The position numbers and the translations under genes were made by a program. This document shows, one piece after another, positions 27,789 to 59,797 of a DNA stretch of 64,000 bases; the stretch's first letter is position 1; every line of letters begins with the position of its first letter. The notes below the pieces were generated by a model, which ran no database searches, was not told the DNA's origin, and was given only the letters and a program-made list of their open reading frames with translations. This DNA is from a virus. Lineage: Duplodnaviria > Heunggongvirae > Uroviricota > Caudoviricetes. The DNA lies in IMG/VR virus record IMGVR_UViG_2700989400_000004, positions 1 through 64,000 of that record. One strand, 5' to 3'.

Positions 27789-27880
27789 GCGGTAATTATG
27801 GATGAAGTAATCGAAAATGTTTTGGTAGTGGCTGGCGCGATTGCCATCGTTTATGCCTTTCTGAATTAATGGGGTGAATC

Positions 27881-28018
27881 ATGAAAATTGAAGTTTTAGC
27901 ACTAATAGCAATGGGCTTGATAGTATTTGGCGTGCACGCTGCGGATTGGGACTGGTGCGCAATAGCTGAGAACATGGCGCACGCTCACCCAATAGGCTTG
28001 ATGCACATGAACTTCTAA
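27881..28018 (+). CDS. small protein with signal-peptide-like N-terminus
   Basis: 45 aa MKIEVLALIAMGLIVFGVHAADWDW... Confidence 0.25.
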   Translation: MKIEVLALIAMGLIVFGVHAADWDWCAIAENMAHAHPIGLMHMNF

Positions 28019-42167: not shown

Positions 42168-43652
42168 TTAAAATCCGCGTAGGCGCTTGGGTAACATAAG
42201 GCCCATCGCCTGGGGTTGGCTCAATTCAGTGATACCCCACACCATCGCGTCGAGTCGGTCCGGGGATTTTTTAGCGGTAGCTGGCACGTATTCCATCATT
42301 TGATTTTCCAGCATGTACAGGCTGCCTGTGTGGGCCACCCTTCCTTGTGCATACAGTGCTGATATTGGCTCGGCGCGGGCGAATTTACCCTTGCTTGCGT
42401 GCACCTTAACAATGCGGCCCTTGAATCCGGCGTTACGTAGCGTGGCCTCTGCCATTTCGCCGCCCTGGTTGGTTTCGATAACTATCGCGTCAGCTTCATG
42501 GATGTTGTAAGCGTTCATTGAGGCTTGCGCCCATTCGTTAGGAGACATGCGGCCTGAGTAGTCACCGTCTACAGAATACTGAGCGTGCTTACCGCCACCA
42601 TAAGCGGAACACGCCACGATCCCGGTTTCGTCAGACTCATCAGATGATGTTGTTGCCGGGTCGATTGCTATCACCGTGCGGATCTTGTCCTGCGTTATCT
42701 GCATCCGGTGCGCGGCGGTTATCATCACTTCCGACCACAATGCGCCCTCTTGATCGAACTTGCGCGGACGCTGCATATATTGAGCTTCGAATGTTCGGCG
42801 ATGTGATTTAAGAGTTGATTCATCTTTATCACTATGCTTATGCAACCATAGCCAGCCGTCCGGCAGGTTGTGAGGAACAGGAATAGCGAATTCGTTTTCC
42901 GGGTATAGATCCCAATAGTCAAGACTGTTGTCGATCTTCACTGGCAGGCAAAGGTGATGCCATTTCTCACCACTACCGCCACGTAACAGGTAGCCGGACA
43001 AATCATCGTAGTGGATGCGCTGCATAATGACGATAACTGGCGTTGTTTGCACAGCCAGACGTGAAGCAAGCGTATCGTTGTAGTTGGTGTTAACTTTATT
43101 CCGCATCACATCAGAGTAAGCGTCAGCGGGCTTTAATGGGTCGTCGATAATCATCGCGCCGTTAAAGCCTGGCTCCATGTAACCAGCACGAAAACCCGTA
43201 ATCTGACCGTGTGACGATGCGGCATATACCCCGCCGCCATATTCCGTCCACCACATTGATTTGGAATTGGCGTCATTACGGATCCTCATGGGCCATAATT
43301 TCTGGTACTCCTGCGAACAAATCATGTTTCTGACTGTCGAGGAATTGAGTAACGCAAGATTGTCAGAATAGGAAACGTGAAGAAATCGTGTGCGGGGACT
43401 TATTGCGAGGGACCGCGCCATCATGTTGATTGTTGCGATCGCGGTTTTACCATACCCTGGGGGAATGTTAATGATGAGGCGGGTAATTTCACCATTAATA
43501 ACACGTTGTAGCGCATCATGGATGGCTATTTGATGGCCTGATATTAACATCTTCGCGCCGTTTGCCTGCTTGTAGAAATAACGGTTGAAGAACAGGCCAT
43601 CGTTTTCGCATTTTGACTGAATAACCTCTTCTTTGATGGTCAACATAATCAC
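42168..43652 (-). CDS. terminase large subunit
   Basis: 494 aa; Walker A PPGYGKT; C-terminal nuclease-type acidic residues. Confidence 0.85.
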   Translation of the reverse strand: MIMLTIKEEVIQSKCENDGLFFNRYFYKQANGAKMLISGHQIAIHDALQRVINGEITRLIINIPPGYGKTAIATINMMARSLAISPRTRFLHVSYSDNLALLNSSTVRNMICSQEYQKLWPMRIRNDANSKSMWWTEYGGGVYAASSHGQITGFRAGYMEPGFNGAMIIDDPLKPADAYSDVMRNKVNTNYNDTLASRLAVQTTPVIVIMQRIHYDDLSGYLLRGGSGEKWHHLCLPVKIDNSLDYWDLYPENEFAIPVPHNLPDGWLWLHKHSDKDESTLKSHRRTFEAQYMQRPRKFDQEGALWSEVMITAAHRMQITQDKIRTVIAIDPATTSSDESDETGIVACSAYGGGKHAQYSVDGDYSGRMSPNEWAQASMNAYNIHEADAIVIETNQGGEMAEATLRNAGFKGRIVKVHASKGKFARAEPISALYAQGRVAHTGSLYMLENQMMEYVPATAKKSPDRLDAMVWGITELSQPQAMGLMLPKRLRGF

Positions 43653-44134
43653 ACCTCATTTTCTACTTCCTGGACGATGCGGGCGATCTCTTCTTTCGTG
43701 ATTTCAATCTGGACGGGCGCTTCTTCCTTGTTGCCGACGATCTCCTGTGTGACGCGTTCGCCGTATTTGCGCGACTGAAGTTTTGCCAGTAGCCACTTGC
43801 GCGTTTCAATCATTAGTTGGTGGCGTCGCAACTGATCTTTATCTGCGTTCTCTGCTGCATCAGCCAGATCGATGATTTCATCAGCCAATACCTCGAAGCC
43901 GATCTCCTTCGCGCGCGCGTACATGATCGAGAATTCCGGTACATCCCTAAACCATTTCAGGATTGTTGAACGGGTAGGCATACCAGGCATTTTCGAAATT
44001 TTATTAATACTCTGACCATCCGCCACCAGTTCACATATTTCTAACGCTTTTTCTTCTGTATAACCATGCGGACGGCCCACCCTTTTTGCGGCTGGCCTTT
44101 TATCGTCAGCTTTTGCCTTTTTAGTGCGGACCAT
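43649..44134 (-). CDS. terminase small subunit (HTH)
   Basis: 161 aa; N-terminal HTH; 4-nt overlap with large subunit. Confidence 0.6.
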   Translation of the reverse strand: MVRTKKAKADDKRPAAKRVGRPHGYTEEKALEICELVADGQSINKISKMPGMPTRSTILKWFRDVPEFSIMYARAKEIGFEVLADEIIDLADAAENADKDQLRRHQLMIETRKWLLAKLQSRKYGERVTQEIVGNKEEAPVQIEITKEEIARIVQEVENEV

Positions 44135-44224
44135 AATTCACCTCTCAATATCTAATGATGATATATACGCAACCCACACAACTTGCGCAGTATGTTAAAA
44201 CTTCCAACCAGTCGAATAGCTCTT

Positions 44225-45082
44225 TCATTGTTTACCCTTGAATCTCTGTTTTGCTTCTTTGTAAATAAGCCCGGTAATCATTACGATCACGTATACGCAT
44301 AACAGTAACGCGGCAATAAGCACGCATGAGCAAACTAAGAACATTAACAGATCGATGAATTCAAACATAATTATCCCTTTACGTAATCGAAAACGCCCAG
44401 ATAATAATGACGATAGCCAAAACCATATAGATAAAATCTGACTCTCTCATCTTTTTAACCCTCGATAAAAATCAACGGCAATAACTACAACTACAGCCAC
44501 CAGCAATAGCATTTCATATGCGTTCATTGACACTACCTATAACCAGACCAATGATTATGATTATGGCGACAATGCCTAACATCATTCCGCACATAATCGC
44601 CAGTAATTCGAATATATCCATACTGTCACCTATGGGCGATCTCTGAACATCGCATAGAAAAACCATATAACAATCGCCAGAATAACCAGCGGTATTAACT
44701 CATAGAATGGGCCGTACATAAATTCACCTATACAACATTCTTCCACCAGAAATAGATAATGACGGCGACCAACGACCACCAGATGAGATCGTAAATATTC
44801 ATGGTGAATACCTTTAGCTTTCAATGAATATCATGATCGCCAGCCATACAGCGACGCAGGCAGAAAGGATAATGAGCTGGTCAATCATATTGTCACCCAT
44901 CTAATATTTGCTCTTTACGGTTATCAGTACGGCGATAACAAAGCCAACCAGAAATATAGATATACCTATTAATCCGGCGATGGTGCTATCGTCCATAATC
45001 AACCTACGGGCCATTTTGGGGAAAACATTACAATCGCAGTTGCAGCCGCGCCGATAAATACACCTAGCAGGAAAGTAAACAT
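44225..45082 (-). other. tandem array of nine tiny hydrophobic peptide ORFs (22-47 aa each)
   Basis: Individual ORFs 44999..45082, 44901..44996, 44814..44900, 44728..44802, 44630..44719, 44514..44621, 44447..44527, 44379..44450, 44225..44368; most have Shine-Dalgarno or overlapping stop/start; no longer ORF on either strand. Confidence 0.45.
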
Positions 45083-45084
45083 AA

Positions 45085-45627
45085 TCACCCCCGTTTAAAG
45101 CTCATAACGCGCGGCACAAGCGCTTCTTTTGCTTTCGGCTTACGTTTGCCTTTCTTCGCGGTTTTTTCTTCTTCCTTCGGCTGTTCTGCCTGTTCTAATG
45201 CCTGCTCAACGACTTCAGCCGCCTGCATTGCTGCAACCTGTGCTTCGTTTGATTCTGCCAGGATAGGGAAAAATGCATCAAAGATGCGGCCTACCATGTA
45301 AGCGTAAGTCTCATTCGCCGGATGAGATGGATCAGTGGTAGCCACGACGCCTACATCGCTTAAAACGTGAAATGTCGTGTGCGCCGCTTCATGTACCAGC
45401 GTTCCTAACTCATTGTCGAATACTGCGATCACGTAGAAGTTACCGCCTTTCTCACCAGTGCAAGTAAGCGTCAATCCTCCTGCCAGTTCGAAATCAGGCT
45501 CAATTGGAATTCCTGCCTTTTCGCAAAATTCATAAAACATCTCGCGGGTCGGGCAAAAGAAAACGGTTGTATGCTCAAAGAGCGGTACTTTGAATTGAGG
45601 CAATTTAATGCCTTTAGCCTTAGCCAT
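45085..45627 (-). CDS. hypothetical protein with HEAAH (HExxH) motif
   Basis: 180 aa; LVHEAAHTTFHVL; Lys-rich C-terminus. Confidence 0.4.
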   Translation of the reverse strand: MAKAKGIKLPQFKVPLFEHTTVFFCPTREMFYEFCEKAGIPIEPDFELAGGLTLTCTGEKGGNFYVIAVFDNELGTLVHEAAHTTFHVLSDVGVVATTDPSHPANETYAYMVGRIFDAFFPILAESNEAQVAAMQAAEVVEQALEQAEQPKEEEKTAKKGKRKPKAKEALVPRVMSFKRG

Positions 45628-45912
45628 CAGAATAATCTCCTATTCTGAAAAATATAACCCCCGCAAAACTCGACACCGCAGGGAGTGAAAACAGCTATAA
45701 AACACTGAAAACGGCGCTTCATCAGTACCGTTTCCAGAATTTTATAAAATTGGTGAATGGCGCTTTCTTCTACCCAGGTAGCGCCGACCTGTCAATGGGA
45801 TGGATGATCCGGTATTACGTGTTTTCGACTATTCCGCCGTCGCTCGCGGGAAGGATTGGCCCGGTTATGGCTGGCTGGCAGAAACGGCGACACGTCCACG
45901 CACTGCCTGTAT

Positions 45913-46215
45913 TTACTCCGCGATCTTACCGATCTTGCTCATCTTCCACTCGTTCCCATGATGGCAATTACATGGCTTGTGTATTGACCGGACTGTTTCG
46001 AATTTCTCATTAATGATGTATGCCTCCGCATGTTCAGGAATATCCACCGTCGCCCAGCCGCCGTGCTCGTCCAGTACGCCCTTAACCTTCATTTGATATT
46101 TGCCAAAAACGTTTTCTTTTATTACGGAAAATGAAGGTGATAACTCAAAGTAATCCTCACTTTCTTTTAAAATTGTGTCGGTATGTTCTTTAACAATTAA
46201 TTTCAGGAATAGCAT
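45913..46215 (-). CDS. hypothetical protein
   Basis: 100 aa ORF after spanin genes. Confidence 0.35.
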   Translation of the reverse strand: MLFLKLIVKEHTDTILKESEDYFELSPSFSVIKENVFGKYQMKVKGVLDEHGGWATVDIPEHAEAYIINEKFETVRSIHKPCNCHHGNEWKMSKIGKIAE

Positions 46216-46224
46216 AATCTACCT

Positions 46225-46707
46225 CTATTTCTGTCTTGTGCATTGTGTTCGTATGTAGTTTTGTAGTTCAGTTATTTTTGCATCTTTCTGTGCTAACCCT
46301 TCTCTGAGGGATAGATAATTTGATTGAGCGCTGGCAGTAGGTCTACAGGTGGCTCCATCAATGCGGCCGGTGGTTCCGGCGGGATCGGACACTCGCACAG
46401 GTATTGCGTTGACGTGCAACCGGATAGCACCGCTATCAATACCAGCACGCAGATCAGCAATGTCGGACCTGATAGCTTTAATTTCATCGTGATACCTCTT
46501 ATCAAGTTTTGACAGTTCGGCGTTTCGCTCCTTCATTTGCTGTATGGTGTTACTCGCTGTTTTTAATGCGCCTTGCGTCGTCGTTAGTTCTTCCTGTAAG
46601 CGCGTTACAGCTCCCTGTGTCTGACATAGTGCAGCGGTAAGCCCGACGATAATGCAAACAACCACGGCGATGATTAACGCCTTTATCTTGTCCACGTTTC
46701 CCCCCAT
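46225..46707 (-). CDS. i-spanin (Rz-like)
   Basis: N-terminal TM then coiled-coil periplasmic domain; follows endolysin. Confidence 0.6.
46293..46487 (-). CDS. o-spanin (Rz1-like lipoprotein) embedded in Rz
   Basis: Lipobox LSGC, Pro-rich; embedded in +1 frame of Rz. Confidence 0.55.
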   Translation of the reverse strand: MKLKLSGPTLLICVLVLIAVLSGCTSTQYLCECPIPPEPPAALMEPPVDLLPALNQIIYPSEKG

Positions 46708-47174
46708 TCACAAACGGCATATTCAACATCACGGCGGTTAATTAACCCTTGCCATTTCTGACCACCAGCATAAATCCAGCGTTTAAGCTGTGCGCACGCT
46801 TCTGATTTCTTGCCGTCATTGAGTAGTTTTAATAAGGTTGATGTTTTGAAGTTGGTAGCGCCTACGTTATAGGCGAACGAGTAAAGCGCGGCGCGGGTAA
46901 AGTCGGAGATTTCTACCTTGATATAAGGGTCAATAGCTTTCGCCACCTTGTGAAGATCTTTATTAAGCAATGCCTCACATTCTGCCGGGGTGTAAGTCTT
47001 GCCTAGCATAATGTCTTTTCCGGTGTGACCTGCGCATACGGTCCAGACACCAATAACATCACGGTATGGCTTGTATTCCACGCCCTCCAGCGGTTTAATC
47101 ATCACGGCAGCAATTGCTATTGCCCCACCCGCCGCAGCCGCCAGAATCTGGCGTTTTAGCGTTTTGCTAATCAT
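46683..47174 (-). CDS. SAR endolysin (phage lysozyme)
   Basis: 163 aa; N-terminal signal-anchor-release-type hydrophobic segment followed by lysozyme-like domain. Confidence 0.75.
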
Positions 47175-47440
47175 AACTTATTCATCTCCAGGTTGTGCCT
47201 TTCCTGTTCGCGCTTGTTCTCCTGTCGCTTGTAGTACCAATTAACCGCGAATGTGCCTATCGTGCACCCGATACCAACTATCACGGCTATGTCATTCAGG
47301 GATAAACCGCCAATTATGGTTGTCAGAATACCAGCTACATAGCTTGCGGCCTCCCTTGTTCGCGTGATTAACGTGGCGATCATTAATACCCCCAACAAAA
47401 CAAAAACCCGGCGCGGGGCCGGGTGGATACAATTTCGCAT
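47171..47440 (-). CDS. holin
   Basis: 89 aa, two hydrophobic helices, charged C-terminus, immediately upstream of endolysin. Confidence 0.55.
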
Positions 47441-56767: not shown

Positions 56768-56960
56768 ACATTAACACCGCCTTTTTAAGTTCGCTTAATT
56801 CAAAGTGCATCAAGCGAAAATGCTGTACACCGCCAACAATACTGACCTGATAAATATCACCAACGCAGTTATAGTAATAACAACCCAATTGACCGATTCC
56901 GGCTAATTTAGCGTTATCCGGTATCATGTATTCGCCAACCTTTTTCATATTCAGCCTCAC
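56757..56960 (-). CDS. hypothetical protein
   Basis: 67 aa. Confidence 0.3.
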   Translation of the reverse strand: MRLNMKKVGEYMIPDNAKLAGIGQLGCYYYNCVGDIYQVSIVGGVQHFRLMHFELSELKKAVLMYEV

Positions 56961-57058
56961 AAATATTTTTCAATCACCCAGCGGAGAAACAAACCAACCG
57001 CCACGATCCCCCAGCAACAAACCATGAAGTAAAACTCGGCCTCATTCGCACTCATTCC

Positions 57059-57545
57059 TTACCTCCCGTGGTTTTCATGATACCCGTACTCGATTTCAGC
57101 TTTACGCCTCGCTTCGATCGCTTCATCTATGCTATCTGAGTAGCATAGATATTTTTTCTTTCCGTCAACGGTAATATAAGATCTCCATTTCTGAGTTAAT
57201 TTATCCCAATAAACACCCGTGCATCCAGAAGTGTTATTTTTCTGCTTAGCTCTATTCTTTGCGTTTTCCTGTCTCGTCACTATTCGAAGGTTATCAAGCC
57301 TATTATTAAGGCGATTATGTCTATATGGTCTATTTGATAGCCTTCCGGGATTGGGCCGTTGTGCATCTCCCATATTATCCTGTGAACGCAATACCTTTTC
57401 CCGCAAAACATAAACCCCTGTACCCACCCTCATACAGAGTACTCCCTGCTACGTCTCCGGCTTTAACCCTGAAACCAGTAGGTTTCTTCCAAATTAGATT
57501 GACTCCGTCGTAATAAAACCACTCTCGCCAGTCAATAGCGTCCAT
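57059..57545 (-). pseudogene. HNH homing endonuclease (HNH plus AP2-like domain) disrupted by two frameshifts
   Basis: Frame 1 MDAIDW...GYRGLCFAGK; frame 3 RYCVHRIIWEMHNGPIPEGYQIDHID; frame 2 NRLNNRLDNLRIVTRQEN...GVYWDK...EEAIEARRKAEIEYG; shifts near GGAAAAGG and GACATAATC. Confidence 0.6.
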
Positions 57546-57635
57546 TGTGTTTTCCCTCTTCCCAAGCGAAATACCCGACAAAACCAACCAGAACAATCAA
57601 CCAGCAAGCCAGGATTAAATCAATCAGCCACATGA

Positions 57636-57875
57636 TTAAGCCTCCATAACCGCGTAATCGAAGCGCCCTAAATACATCTCGATGCCGATCATCTCGACGC
57701 CCTGGACGTCCGCGCCCCATACAGTTACGTGATAAGCGTCCTCCCGCCATTGTTCATGGCTTAGCACTTCGTTTGCTGGATATTTCCGCCCCGCGACGTA
57801 AGCGCCCGGACCTACGCCACCTTCTACGCAATACAGCATGATCTGGTTTTCCATATCGCACCTCGTTAATAGCAA
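57636..57875 (-). CDS. hypothetical protein
   Basis: 79 aa ORF; start uncertain. Confidence 0.3.
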   Translation of the reverse strand: MLLTRCDMENQIMLYCVEGGVGPGAYVAGRKYPANEVLSHEQWREDAYHVTVWGADVQGVEMIGIEMYLGRFDYAVMEA

Positions 57876-58048
57876 ACTGCGTACATACAGATCCCGTTGT
57901 TAAAGGCTTTGATGATCATGTCGATGACCATGTAAACGAGCATTACAGCCGCCGCTGGGACAAGGATCGCGAATAGTCCGCCTAACGTGCGCTCAATAAT
58001 GAAATGCGGGTTTACTTTGCTTTTGTGGTTACGTTCAAAGTTTGTCAT
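57866..58048 (-). CDS. hypothetical small membrane protein
   Basis: 60 aa, hydrophobic. Confidence 0.3.
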   Translation of the reverse strand: MTNFERNHKSKVNPHFIIERTLGGLFAILVPAAAVMLVYMVIDMIIKAFNNGICMYAVCY

Positions 58049-59293: not shown

Positions 59294-59559
59294 ACGCCAA
59301 ACATCCCATTCAATCCGGCGAACAACTGCCGCCAGTGGTCTTCAACATAAGCCCGGAAAGGCTTAACGCGAACATTGCGGGCCTTCAGCGTGATACTGTC
59401 AAAATAACGCGGCTCGATCAGCGTACCATCAAGGTATTGAACGAGGATCGGGCGCTCAAAGTCGCTACATGTTTTATTCAGCACGACCAGACCGGGGTCA
59501 CTACGATATGCGGGCAAAACAACGAGATCACCCGCCTTTGCATCCCATAACATCATCAC
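59284..59559 (-). CDS. hypothetical protein
   Basis: 91 aa. Confidence 0.35.
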   Translation of the reverse strand: MMMLWDAKAGDLVVLPAYRSDPGLVVLNKTCSDFERPILVQYLDGTLIEPRYFDSITLKARNVRVKPFRAYVEDHWRQLFAGLNGMFGVWL

Positions 59560-59675
59560 ATCACCCCTTTACCAATAAGGCCAATCACCGCCGCCAGTGC
59601 GCCACAAAAGACAACCGTAAACAGGAAGCAAATAACGCAAAACGCGACCGTTACAATATCCTTACTGACTTTCAT
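59559..59675 (-). CDS. small hydrophobic peptide (38 aa)
   Basis: MKVSKDIVTVAFCVICFLFTVVFCGALAAVIGLIGKGVM. Confidence 0.3.
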
Positions 59676-59683
59676 AATTAGCC

Positions 59684-59797
59684 TCACATATTAGTAATCA
59701 GTTTGATGATCGCCACCGTAATATAAAGCGATACGCTGAGATACAGCACCGCCACCGCTACCGCCGCCAGCAATGCGGCAATTTTTGCGAGATTCAT
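59684..59797 (-). CDS. small hydrophobic peptide (37 aa)
   Basis: MNLAKIAALLAAVAVAVLYLSVSLYITVAIIKLITNM with GGAGGG Shine-Dalgarno. Confidence 0.35.
   Translation of the reverse strand: MNLAKIAALLAAVAVAVLYLSVSLYITVAIIKLITNM

Follow-up and report, generated by a model that had tools for sequence, protein, structure and literature searches.

A run of very short open reading frames (ORFs) lies between the lysis cassette and the terminase genes of the tailed phage sequence IMGVR_UViG_2700989400_000004, of which positions 1 to 64,000 (hereafter the window, 64 kb) were analyzed. Each of these ORFs encodes little more than one hydrophobic helix, which raises the question of whether they are genes at all and, if so, what a phage would use so many of them for. 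A preliminary description of the window had listed nine of them on the minus strand at 44225-45082, and all nine are present there; a tenth ORF of the same kind (gene 10 in Table 1, product beginning MKELFDWLEV) lies just beyond those coordinates. The array as a whole occupies window positions 44145-45082 on the minus strand and consists of ten consecutive ATG-started ORFs with Shine-Dalgarno (SD) sites. Four of the start codons were set by comparison with relatives (p1 ATG 45082, p2 ATG 44996, p3 ATG 44888 and p7 ATG 44527), and with these starts the size range becomes 23-47 amino acids (aa) instead of the 22-47 aa first given; an alternative ATG upstream of gene 3, at 44900, is not kept in relatives. 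The context had been described correctly, with genes for a class II holin, a lysozyme and Rz/Rz1 upstream and those for the terminase subunits TerS and TerL downstream. The array has a GC content of 37-43% compared to 45-55% in its flanks, and its coding strand is T-rich. The longest competing ORF on either strand, of 64 aa, is an upstream TTG extension of p5.

The array belongs to a temperate E. coli phage of the mEp021 ('mEpimmI') type. Matches to the region were found in Escherichia phage MagusPhagus, in the Mexican phages mEp010, mEp554, mEp044, mEp013 and mEp021 and in 35 of 5426 complete E. coli genomes; they are patchy and cover 18-91% of the query. For the TerS protein, an identical entry is from E. 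coli, as are all named relatives with at least 80% identity. The mEpimmI phages are Nus-dependent non-lambdoid coliphages, and the array region is absent from the discussion in the paper on the mEp021 group (PMC11893012). For comparison we used 51 related loci from GenBank phages and IMG/VR, the counts below refer to 52 arrays, and clustering of the encoded peptides yielded about 19 types, which are referred to by letters below.

The ORFs of the array are protein-coding genes

We searched for ORFs that combine an ATG, an SD-like motif, at least 22 codons and a hydrophobic 15-mer. Applied to the array stretch, this rule returned ten ORFs, which occupy 91% of the coding strand, while the opposite strand had none; 2000 dinucleotide-preserving shuffles contained on average 0.35 such ORFs and never more than 3. 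When the rule was applied to the whole window, these ten fell within 940 bp, and 13 other candidates were found on the rest of that strand. For the SD-anti-SD duplex, the mean energy was -7.1 kcal/mol in the array; a set of 27 long ORFs from the window had a mean of -6.65 kcal/mol, and random ATGs one of -3.98 kcal/mol. The SD sites of the array match those of the long genes in strength. Furthermore, at all 11 junctions from the 180-aa ORF upstream of the array through TerS, neighboring genes either overlap by 4-14 nt or stand 2-12 nt apart: gene 1 starts 2 nt past the stop of the 180-aa ORF, genes 6 and 7 overlap by 14 nt, and several stop codons sit within the SD sequence of the next gene (ATAGGTGAnnnnATG). 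This junction layout and the duplex energies bear out the proposal that the ORFs have their own SD sites or overlap the preceding stop codon.

The comparison of the 52 arrays revealed selection at the protein level. The ratio of non-synonymous to synonymous changes (pN/pS), computed from pooled pairwise counts over related, non-independent sequences without a tree, was 0.28 in the called frame and 0.93 and 1.28 in the other frames, while TerS from the same loci, used as a control, gave 0.23. For the 14 types with enough alleles, pN/pS ranged from 0.14 to 0.38 (Table 1), and variable sites were distributed over the three codon positions as 138/95/230. The ORF was intact in 475 of the 481 cassette copies (98.8%), the copies having been detected by DNA similarity; the six non-intact copies are accounted for by one start-codon loss, one frameshift and one lesion common to four closely related loci. 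Thus, purifying selection, conservation of the frame in relatives and the integrity of nearly all copies demonstrate that the ten ORFs are genuine protein-coding genes, as the preliminary description had claimed.

The peptides share an acidic N-terminus and a single hydrophobic helix

All ten peptides follow one plan: the N-terminus is acidic, a single hydrophobic helix follows, and the C-terminus is often short and basic. In each of them the maximum 15-residue hydropathy on the Kyte-Doolittle scale lies between 1.9 and 3.4, consistent with the one helix per peptide noted at first sight. The N-terminal flank of the helix carries a net negative charge in 9 of the 10 peptides and the C-terminal flank a net positive charge in 7 of the 10. 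A common N-terminal pattern, likewise noted earlier, recurs across the types: 16 of the 19 have D or E at positions 2-8, whereas 5000 shuffles gave on average 8.4 and at most 15 such types. The mean relative position along the peptide was 0.36 for acidic and 0.81 for basic residues over the 19 types, a difference reached in none of 5000 shuffles. Several peptides also contain GxxxG motifs, and peptide 6 contains two.

Because of this charge dipole and the positive-inside rule, the peptides are predicted to span the membrane once with the N-terminus out and the C-terminus in (N-out/C-in), like the Pf3 coat protein. Judged by their sequence features and the selection acting on them, they fit the class of bacterial small membrane proteins, which have at most 50 aa and a single transmembrane helix.

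Array content varies while the order of gene types is fixed

In every relative, the slot between the homolog of the 180-aa ORF and TerS measures 320-1160 bp, and ORFs of the same kind cover 75-93% of it. The types follow one fixed order, [A/a/Z/O][b]B[N][d]C D E F G [H] I J K [H'] L M. The content of the arrays varies from 3 to 13 genes, giving 40 distinct architectures among the 52 arrays. The genes are as tightly packed in relatives as in the window, with a median gap of 8 nt over 425 junctions, of which 92% have gaps of 15 nt or less and 33% are overlaps.

Comparison of arrays that differ by the presence or absence of a gene placed the breakpoints between SD and ATG; in one example, the C-D spacer is joined straight onto the coding sequence of G. 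Types D and G have a common 5' end, ATGAAyNNNTAYGA. Chimeric genes were also found: type b joins the N-terminus of B to the A core LFIGMAAAVIL, P0016 joins the N-terminus of G to the C-terminus of L, and one relative (L041) contains a B-C read-through fusion. The chimeras confirm that recombination occurs within the array. Gains, losses, insertions and fusions take place exactly at gene borders, and so does the formation of chimeras.

We also compared the types with each other, using composition-preserving shuffles as reference. The similarity was significant for many pairs (z-scores of 7.9 for d-G, 6.0 for H-I, 5.4 for G-J, 4.7 for b-J and 4.5 for E-G), which upholds the earlier idea of a family of related genes. 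The accompanying idea of tandem amplification did not hold for recent events, as no DNA repeats other than the SD/start motifs were found in the array. Together, significant similarity between types and the lack of repeats beyond the start motifs show that the array is an old, diverged paralog family in fixed order, remodeled by recombination at gene borders, and not the product of recent amplification.

The slot is also used by unrelated genes. Two relatives carry an extra ORF for an acidic non-membrane protein of 48-54 aa (MVSNEELKMADEIRKALDAAENN...) between the last peptide gene and TerS (L014, 773-920; L053, 754-919), and in mEp013 an HNH endonuclease gene lies beside a truncated homolog of the 180-aa ORF. 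These insertions indicate that the slot is a general hotspot for accessory genes. The array is not a general trait of phages with an Sf6-type TerS, since the genes that precede TerS are ordinary ones in the relatives with a TerS of 39% and 34% identity.

The array lies in a block that follows a terminator-like element

A conserved terminator-like double hairpin ends about 20 nt before the ATG of the 180-aa ORF. The element (about 100-125 nt) is composed of a long hairpin of about 22 bp, a 9-bp GC-rich hairpin and a U-run; it has a minimum free energy of -37.6 kcal/mol (z -3.4) and hardly varies among mEp021, mEp010 and MagusPhagus, in contrast to the diverging sequence farther upstream. It resembles a tandem terminator or a regulatory RNA in the middle of the late operon, and it marks the start of a tightly coupled block made up of the 180-aa ORF, the array and the terminase genes. 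A 31-aa ORF (MKRRFQCFIAVF...) that is annotated as a coding sequence (CDS) in MagusPhagus lies wholly over the hairpin element and is probably not a gene. A second terminator-like site, a strong one, was found upstream of the holin gene.

Simple consensus scans gave five promoter-like sites, compared to 10.5 expected from shuffles. On the coding strand these scans found a single weak promoter-like site and no convincing promoter, and on the opposite strand three promoter-like sites; they found no terminator at the 3' end of the array. A search of positions 43500-46500 against Rfam at E-values up to 1 gave no match. Since no internal promoter was found and a terminator-like hairpin lies upstream, the 180-aa ORF, the array, TerS and TerL would most simply form a part of the late transcript that depends on read-through, and the array is probably not expressed from the repressed prophage.

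Possible functions of the array peptides

Taken together, these data make it probable that the array encodes real, late-expressed microproteins of the inner membrane that have an accessory, membrane-directed function. The genes would be transcribed only within the late lytic transcript, and this would require read-through of the double hairpin that precedes the block, as the scans of the array itself revealed no promoter. Translation would be handed from gene to gene by coupling, as stop codons lie within or beside the SD site of the next gene or overlap its start codon as ATGA. The peptides would insert into the inner membrane in the N-out/C-in orientation, as the Pf3 coat protein does, and would act through helix-helix contacts with other membrane proteins. 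Each of them would be accessory when taken individually, because array content varies greatly and one relative retains only three genes.

The most likely specific role, which we propose only tentatively, would be to tune the membrane step of lysis, i.e. the triggering of a pinholin or the release of an endolysin of the signal-anchor-release (SAR) type, since this step depends on the energization of the membrane and the lysis genes lie just upstream. The proposal also draws on the likely co-expression of the array with the lysis genes late in infection and on the precedent of phage Mu gp25, a small protein tethered to the membrane that helps to release a SAR endolysin (PMC9239132). A weak link is provided by position, the array being downstream of genes for a class II holin and a lysozyme with a Gly/Ala-rich hydrophobic segment at its N-terminus.

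Several observations weigh against an accessory membrane function of late-expressed peptides or against its connection to lysis. We inferred late expression solely from simple consensus scans and the layout of the operon, and part of the constraint on the peptides could reflect mere upkeep of hydrophobicity. The uncharged core of types D, G and M is only 13-16 residues long and type C has zero basic residues, so that the topology is uncertain for some peptides. The 180-aa ORF, the variable 100-aa ORF and the terminator-like element separate the array from the lysis cassette, and no peptide matches DUF2730 (releasin) or any holin family. The similarity between type F and the second transmembrane domain (TMD2) of the holin had a p-value of about 0.001, uncorrected in about 96 tests, and is not significant after correction. 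Finally, one relative (L018) retains just three genes (A, B and M); most of the array is therefore dispensable, and any role in lysis would be modulatory. The peptides were also considered as copies of the phage's own helices (those of the holin, the SAR segment, Rz and a 67-aa ORF with two transmembrane helices), and this was rejected, the best case being the non-significant pair of F and holin TMD2.

The same anatomy would suit a host- or competitor-directed arsenal, an alternative of about the same probability that rivals only the proposed role in lysis. Here, each microprotein would bind a different protein of the inner membrane, and the variation in cassettes would mirror an arms race. 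The targets could be host transporters or injection co-factors, leading to exclusion of other phages during the lytic cycle, and they could also be membrane effectors of abortive infection (anti-defense) or enzymes of envelope synthesis (host takeover). The coexistence of 40 architectures in 52 arrays, with 3-13 genes each, and purifying selection on every gene is typical of conflict-related accessory loci, and recombination in the array yields new chimeric peptides. The slot accepts other genes as well, namely the HNH endonuclease of mEp013, the acidic protein of L014 and L053 and the 100-aa ORF of the window, and there are known examples of small phage proteins of the inner membrane that exclude other phages, e.g. 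HK97 gp15 (PMC3594210). However, the lack of an own promoter and the terminator-like elements upstream make expression from the prophage unlikely, which classic exclusion would need, and late expression would come too late for blocking superinfection. Furthermore, PADLOC and PHROGs contained no match, and every family has a pN/pS below 0.4, with no sign of diversifying selection at the sequence level.

We regard as rather unlikely a phage-borne library of transmembrane 'helix decoys', each of which would inhibit or modulate a different membrane protein of the host, of a defense system or of the phage; unequal crossing-over between similar gene starts would then continually make new combinations and chimeric helices.

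It is improbable that the peptides are membrane-depolarizing toxins, comparable to type I toxins (Ibs, Ldr, TisB, ShoB, DinQ and Hok) or to single-gene-lysis proteins, which would permeabilize or depolarize the membrane by themselves as auxiliary lysis or kill factors. The peptides resemble type I toxins in size and extreme hydrophobicity, several contain GxxxG motifs, and depolarizing peptides would be effective beside a lysis system that is triggered by the proton-motive force. Tandem repeats also occur at E. coli type I toxin loci (PMC12648545). Nevertheless, no toxin family in Pfam or NCBIfam matched, even at E-values up to 1, and evidence of antisense RNA genes was not found, as promoter-like sites on the opposite strand were not above chance and Rfam gave no match. 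The strong SD sites and the coupled operon differ from type I toxin mRNAs, which are individually repressed, and the production of 10-13 toxins before packaging completes would seem counter-productive.

Very unlikely, given the evidence for protein-level selection, is that the peptides have no function of their own and that the ORFs only serve to hold ribosomes on a long leader, be it as a relay of coupled translation that controls terminase expression or as a shield against Rho and RNases, or that the region is a non-coding packaging or regulatory sequence. The tight junctions and the stops inside the next SD, which continue into TerS, are consistent with a relay, as is the highly variable number of genes, which would be expected if single peptides did not matter. 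A relay does not, however, require hydrophobic and potentially harmful products, nor does it account for amino-acid conservation as strong as that of TerS (0.28 vs. 0.23), for the 98.8% of intact copies, or for a hydrophobic helix and charge dipole kept across about 19 types. The frame is conserved in relatives and the off frames evolve neutrally, contrary to a non-coding leader, and no RNA family or long repeat was found in the region.

Hardly credible is a set of precursors of exported peptides (bacteriocin-, microcin- or RiPP-like, i.e. ribosomally synthesized and post-translationally modified peptides), possibly processed by the adjacent 180-aa protein: tandem small genes do adjoin a protein with an invariant HExxH...ANETY motif and peptide F contains ELLAIMCG, which on reading the sequence vaguely resembles a double-glycine leader, but there is no common leader, no exporter, immunity or modification gene is nearby, the peptides are uniformly hydrophobic and neither amphipathic nor cationic, and homologs of the 180-aa protein in P22-like phages have no peptide arrays downstream.

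Flanking genes and other candidate small ORFs

The 180-aa protein has an HExxH motif followed by an ANETY motif, both of which are common to its homologs in P22-like phages, ST64T gp49 and HK620 HkcC, and this points to the fold of a small, zincin-like metallopeptidase. The C-terminal third of the protein consists of a variable low-complexity tail, first acidic and then basic. A single-sequence AlphaFold model reached a predicted local distance difference test (pLDDT) score of 48 and was too poor for use. A functional link between this protein and the array was rejected, as the ST64T and HK620 homologs have no peptide array downstream.

Between Rz and the hairpin element, a 100-aa ORF lies in a low-GC patch (about 39%). 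It has no match in Pfam or PHROGs and is absent at this position in MagusPhagus, and it looks like an inserted accessory gene.

In the lysis cassette, the lysozyme carries its Gly/Ala-rich hydrophobic segment within the first 28 residues, and on reading the sequence we judge this N-terminus to be SAR-like. Three basic residues precede the segment. In phage Mu, basic residues at this position of the endolysin make release of the SAR endolysin dependent on a membrane helper (PMC9239132), and by analogy the three residues could be relevant to the function of the array.

Further candidate single-helix micro-ORFs, of 23-60 aa and with an ATG and SD site, occur in gaps between long ORFs elsewhere in the prophage; one adjacent pair, of 37 and 39 aa, exactly fills the gap at 59559-59794. 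The similarity of these ORFs to the array types is weak (z at most 5.3), and they were not accepted as members of the family.

Table 1. Positions of the array genes and of other features in the window, with the occurrence and pN/pS of each peptide type.
Feature	Positions	Strand	Description	Occurrence of type	pN/pS of type
Peptide gene 1 (type A)	44999..45082	-	27 aa, MFTFLLGVFIGAAATAIVMFSPKWPVG	26 related loci	0.32
Peptide gene 2 (type B)	44901..44996	-	31 aa, MDDSTIAGLIGISIFLVGFVIAVLITVKSKY	38 loci	0.26
Peptide gene 3 (type C)	44814..44888	-	24 aa, MIDQLIILSACVAVWLAIMIFIES	48 loci	0.28
Peptide gene 4 (type D)	44728..44802	-	24 aa, MNIYDLIWWSLVAVIIYFWWKNVV	35 loci; two pseudogene copies in other loci	0.38
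Peptide gene 5 (type E)	44630..44719	-	29 aa, MYGPFYELIPLVILAIVIWFFYAMFRDRP; rare cassette	window and L052 only, among 52 arrays	
Peptide gene 6 (type F)	44514..44621	-	35 aa, MDIFELLAIMCGMMLGIVAIIIIIGLVIGSVNERI	22 loci	0.14
Peptide gene 7 (type G)	44447..44527	-	26 aa, MNAYEMLLLVAVVVVIAVDFYRGLKR; core cassette	51 of 52 arrays	0.29
Peptide gene 8 (type H)	44379..44450	-	23 aa, MRESDFIYMVLAIVIIIWAFSIT; ATGA overlap with gene 7	51 of 52 arrays (combined H/I family)	0.26 (combined H/I family)
Peptide gene 9 (type L)	44225..44368	-	47 aa, MFEFIDLLMFLVCSCVLIAALLLCVYVIVMITGLIYKEAKQRFKGKQ; longest basic C-terminal tail		0.27
Peptide gene 10 (type M)	44145..44228	-	27 aa, MKELFDWLEVLTYCASCVGCVYIIIRY; core cassette; ATGA overlap with gene 9; ends 10 nt before TerS	51 of 52 arrays	0.25
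Terminase small subunit TerS	43649..44134	-	Sf6_terminase family; downstream boundary of array		
180-aa ORF	45085..45627	-	phrog_1365, family of unknown function; invariant HExxH motif; upstream boundary of array		
31-aa ORF	45627-45722	-	over hairpin element; probably not a gene		
Double hairpin with U-run	45648-45747	-	terminator-like, conserved		
100-aa ORF	45913-46215	-	looks like inserted accessory gene		
Lysis cassette	46225..47383	-	context of array		
Rz with embedded Rz1	46225-46707	-			
Lysozyme	46683-47174	-	Gly/Ala-rich hydrophobic segment near N-terminus		
Class II holin	about 47171-47383	-	Phage_holin_2_3, E 1e-18		
Terminator-like site	47424-47406		strong; upstream of holin		
Candidate micro-ORFs	59556-59797, 57532-57633, 56957-57055, 57866-58048	-			
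Candidate micro-ORF	27798-28018	+			

Annotation status and significance of the array

The ten peptides had no match above noise in Pfam, PHROGs, NCBIfam or PADLOC; the PHROG matches were weak only (E-values of at least 0.01) and were to families of unknown function. In a collection of 15 billion proteins, nine of the ten exact sequences are absent, including ones found in dozens of loci, and the sole exact entry, that of peptide 2, is named 'hypothetical protein'. A homolog search with peptide 9 (type L, 47 aa) found just 16 clusters that share at least 70% identity with it, each of them either unnamed or called 'hypothetical', and an exhaustive search of 1.84 billion representatives with a type L profile retrieved only its own 2 clusters. 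Genome annotations differ in how they treat the array. PGAP leaves an unannotated gap of 810 bp at the array in strain RM9245 (L058, 667-1476), and in O157:H7 strain LSU61 (L059, NZ_CP038336, 650-1039) it calls a CDS of 129 aa antisense to the array that is probably spurious. The GenBank record of mEp021 has an unannotated gap of 485 bp at this site, while annotations of the PHANOTATE/Pharokka type call some of the array genes, as hypothetical proteins. A description of the array was not found in the literature searched, which covered the mEp021-group paper, surveys of small proteins, papers on small phage genes and the exact peptide strings. The first impression that this is not a described phage module is therefore upheld, and to our knowledge a fixed-order battery of up to 13 genes for such tiny membrane proteins has not been described before in the databases and literature searched.

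As a class, small membrane proteins with a single helix are under-annotated, and here up to 13 genes of this class lie next to each other in a common group of human-gut coliphages with almost none of them called. The comparative data provide unusually clean evidence of protein-level selection on ORFs of 22-47 aa, and the array illustrates how such genes evolve, through border-precise loss and gain and the formation of chimeras within a fixed order. If the peptides act on lysis timing or on membrane targets of the host or its defenses, the array would represent a compact, naturally diversified toolkit of membrane-protein modulators. If they were helix decoys, they would define a new class of phage locus for counter-defense or takeover and a natural source of minimal membrane-protein binders. 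The system is tractable, with E. coli K-12 as host, isolated phages (mEp010, mEp021 and MagusPhagus) and natural variants with 3 to 13 genes.

Comparison with known systems

Several known classes were considered and rejected. The class II or leaderless bacteriocins, microcins and RiPPs do not fit peptides that have no common leader, cores that are uniformly hydrophobic and a neighborhood without transporter or modification genes. Known systems of anti-phage defense or superinfection exclusion gave no PADLOC match, and the PHROG matches were weak and to families of unknown function. Spanins (Rz1 or u-spanin) are not a match either, as the peptides have no lipobox and acidic N-termini, and Rz/Rz1 are encoded elsewhere in the window (Table 1). 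Holins have one or more transmembrane domains and a charged C-terminal domain and are usually longer than 55 aa. Among the array peptides a sizeable charged tail occurs in type L only, and no holin family matched, so that holins, pinholins and antiholins were rejected. A releasin, in which an N-terminal transmembrane domain is combined with a cytoplasmic domain (DUF2730), was rejected because there is no DUF2730 match and the peptides have no soluble domain.

Type I toxins (Ibs/Sib, Ldr/Rdl, TisB, ShoB, DinQ, Hok and Zor) are hydrophobic single-helix peptides of the inner membrane, of 18-50 aa, as the array peptides would be; some of their loci consist of tandem repeats, and most escaped annotation for a long time (PMC12648545; for DinQ, PMC3567139). 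Each toxin gene is, however, independent and has an antisense RNA antitoxin and a translationally repressed mRNA. The array peptides share the small hydrophobic helix with this class, and neither a toxin-family match nor an independent, repressed mRNA was found for them, the genes being tightly packed, equipped with strong SD sites and oriented like the genes on either side.

The single-gene lysis proteins (phiX174 E and the Sgl proteins of leviviruses) are likewise very small and have one transmembrane helix. They can act by binding a membrane enzyme of the host, and they readily evolve de novo. In contrast to the array, they are the sole lysis genes of tiny ssDNA or ssRNA phages, whereas the phage studied here has a full holin-endolysin-spanin cassette.

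The Pf3 coat protein resembles the array peptides in its layout, as its N-terminal tail is acidic, its C-terminus basic and a single hydrophobic helix lies between them, all in less than 50 aa. It is the model of an N-out/C-in single-span protein that is inserted by YidC. Work on its insertion is cited in a review (PMC12648545). As Pf3 coat is a structural protein of a filamentous-phage virion and has no homology to the array peptides, the likeness concerns only the insertion route and topology.

The Mu gp25 releasin and the antiholins lambda S107 and S21-71 are membrane-anchored, as is predicted for the array peptides, and are likewise encoded near lysis genes, and they modulate holin triggering or the release of SAR endolysins (PMC9239132). 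These regulators are single genes or alternative starts of holin genes and have functional soluble domains, whereas the array peptides are almost helix only, come in large and variable sets and have other genes between them and the lysis cassette.

HK97 gp15, a homolog of host YebO that the prophage expresses, is encoded by a lone gene flanked by a promoter and a terminator of its own (PMC3594210). In the array, by comparison, 3-13 genes are coupled and no promoter was detected, and the products are far shorter (22-47 aa) and have no homologs outside this phage group. It was not accepted as an independent transcription unit of the moron kind, as consensus scans found no convincing promoter on the coding strand and no 3' terminator and the last gene ends 10 nt before TerS. 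What the array peptides would have in common with gp15 and similar 'moron' proteins of temperate coliphages is that they are small phage proteins of the inner membrane that are dispensable for growth and are encoded within a late or structural operon (PMC3594210).

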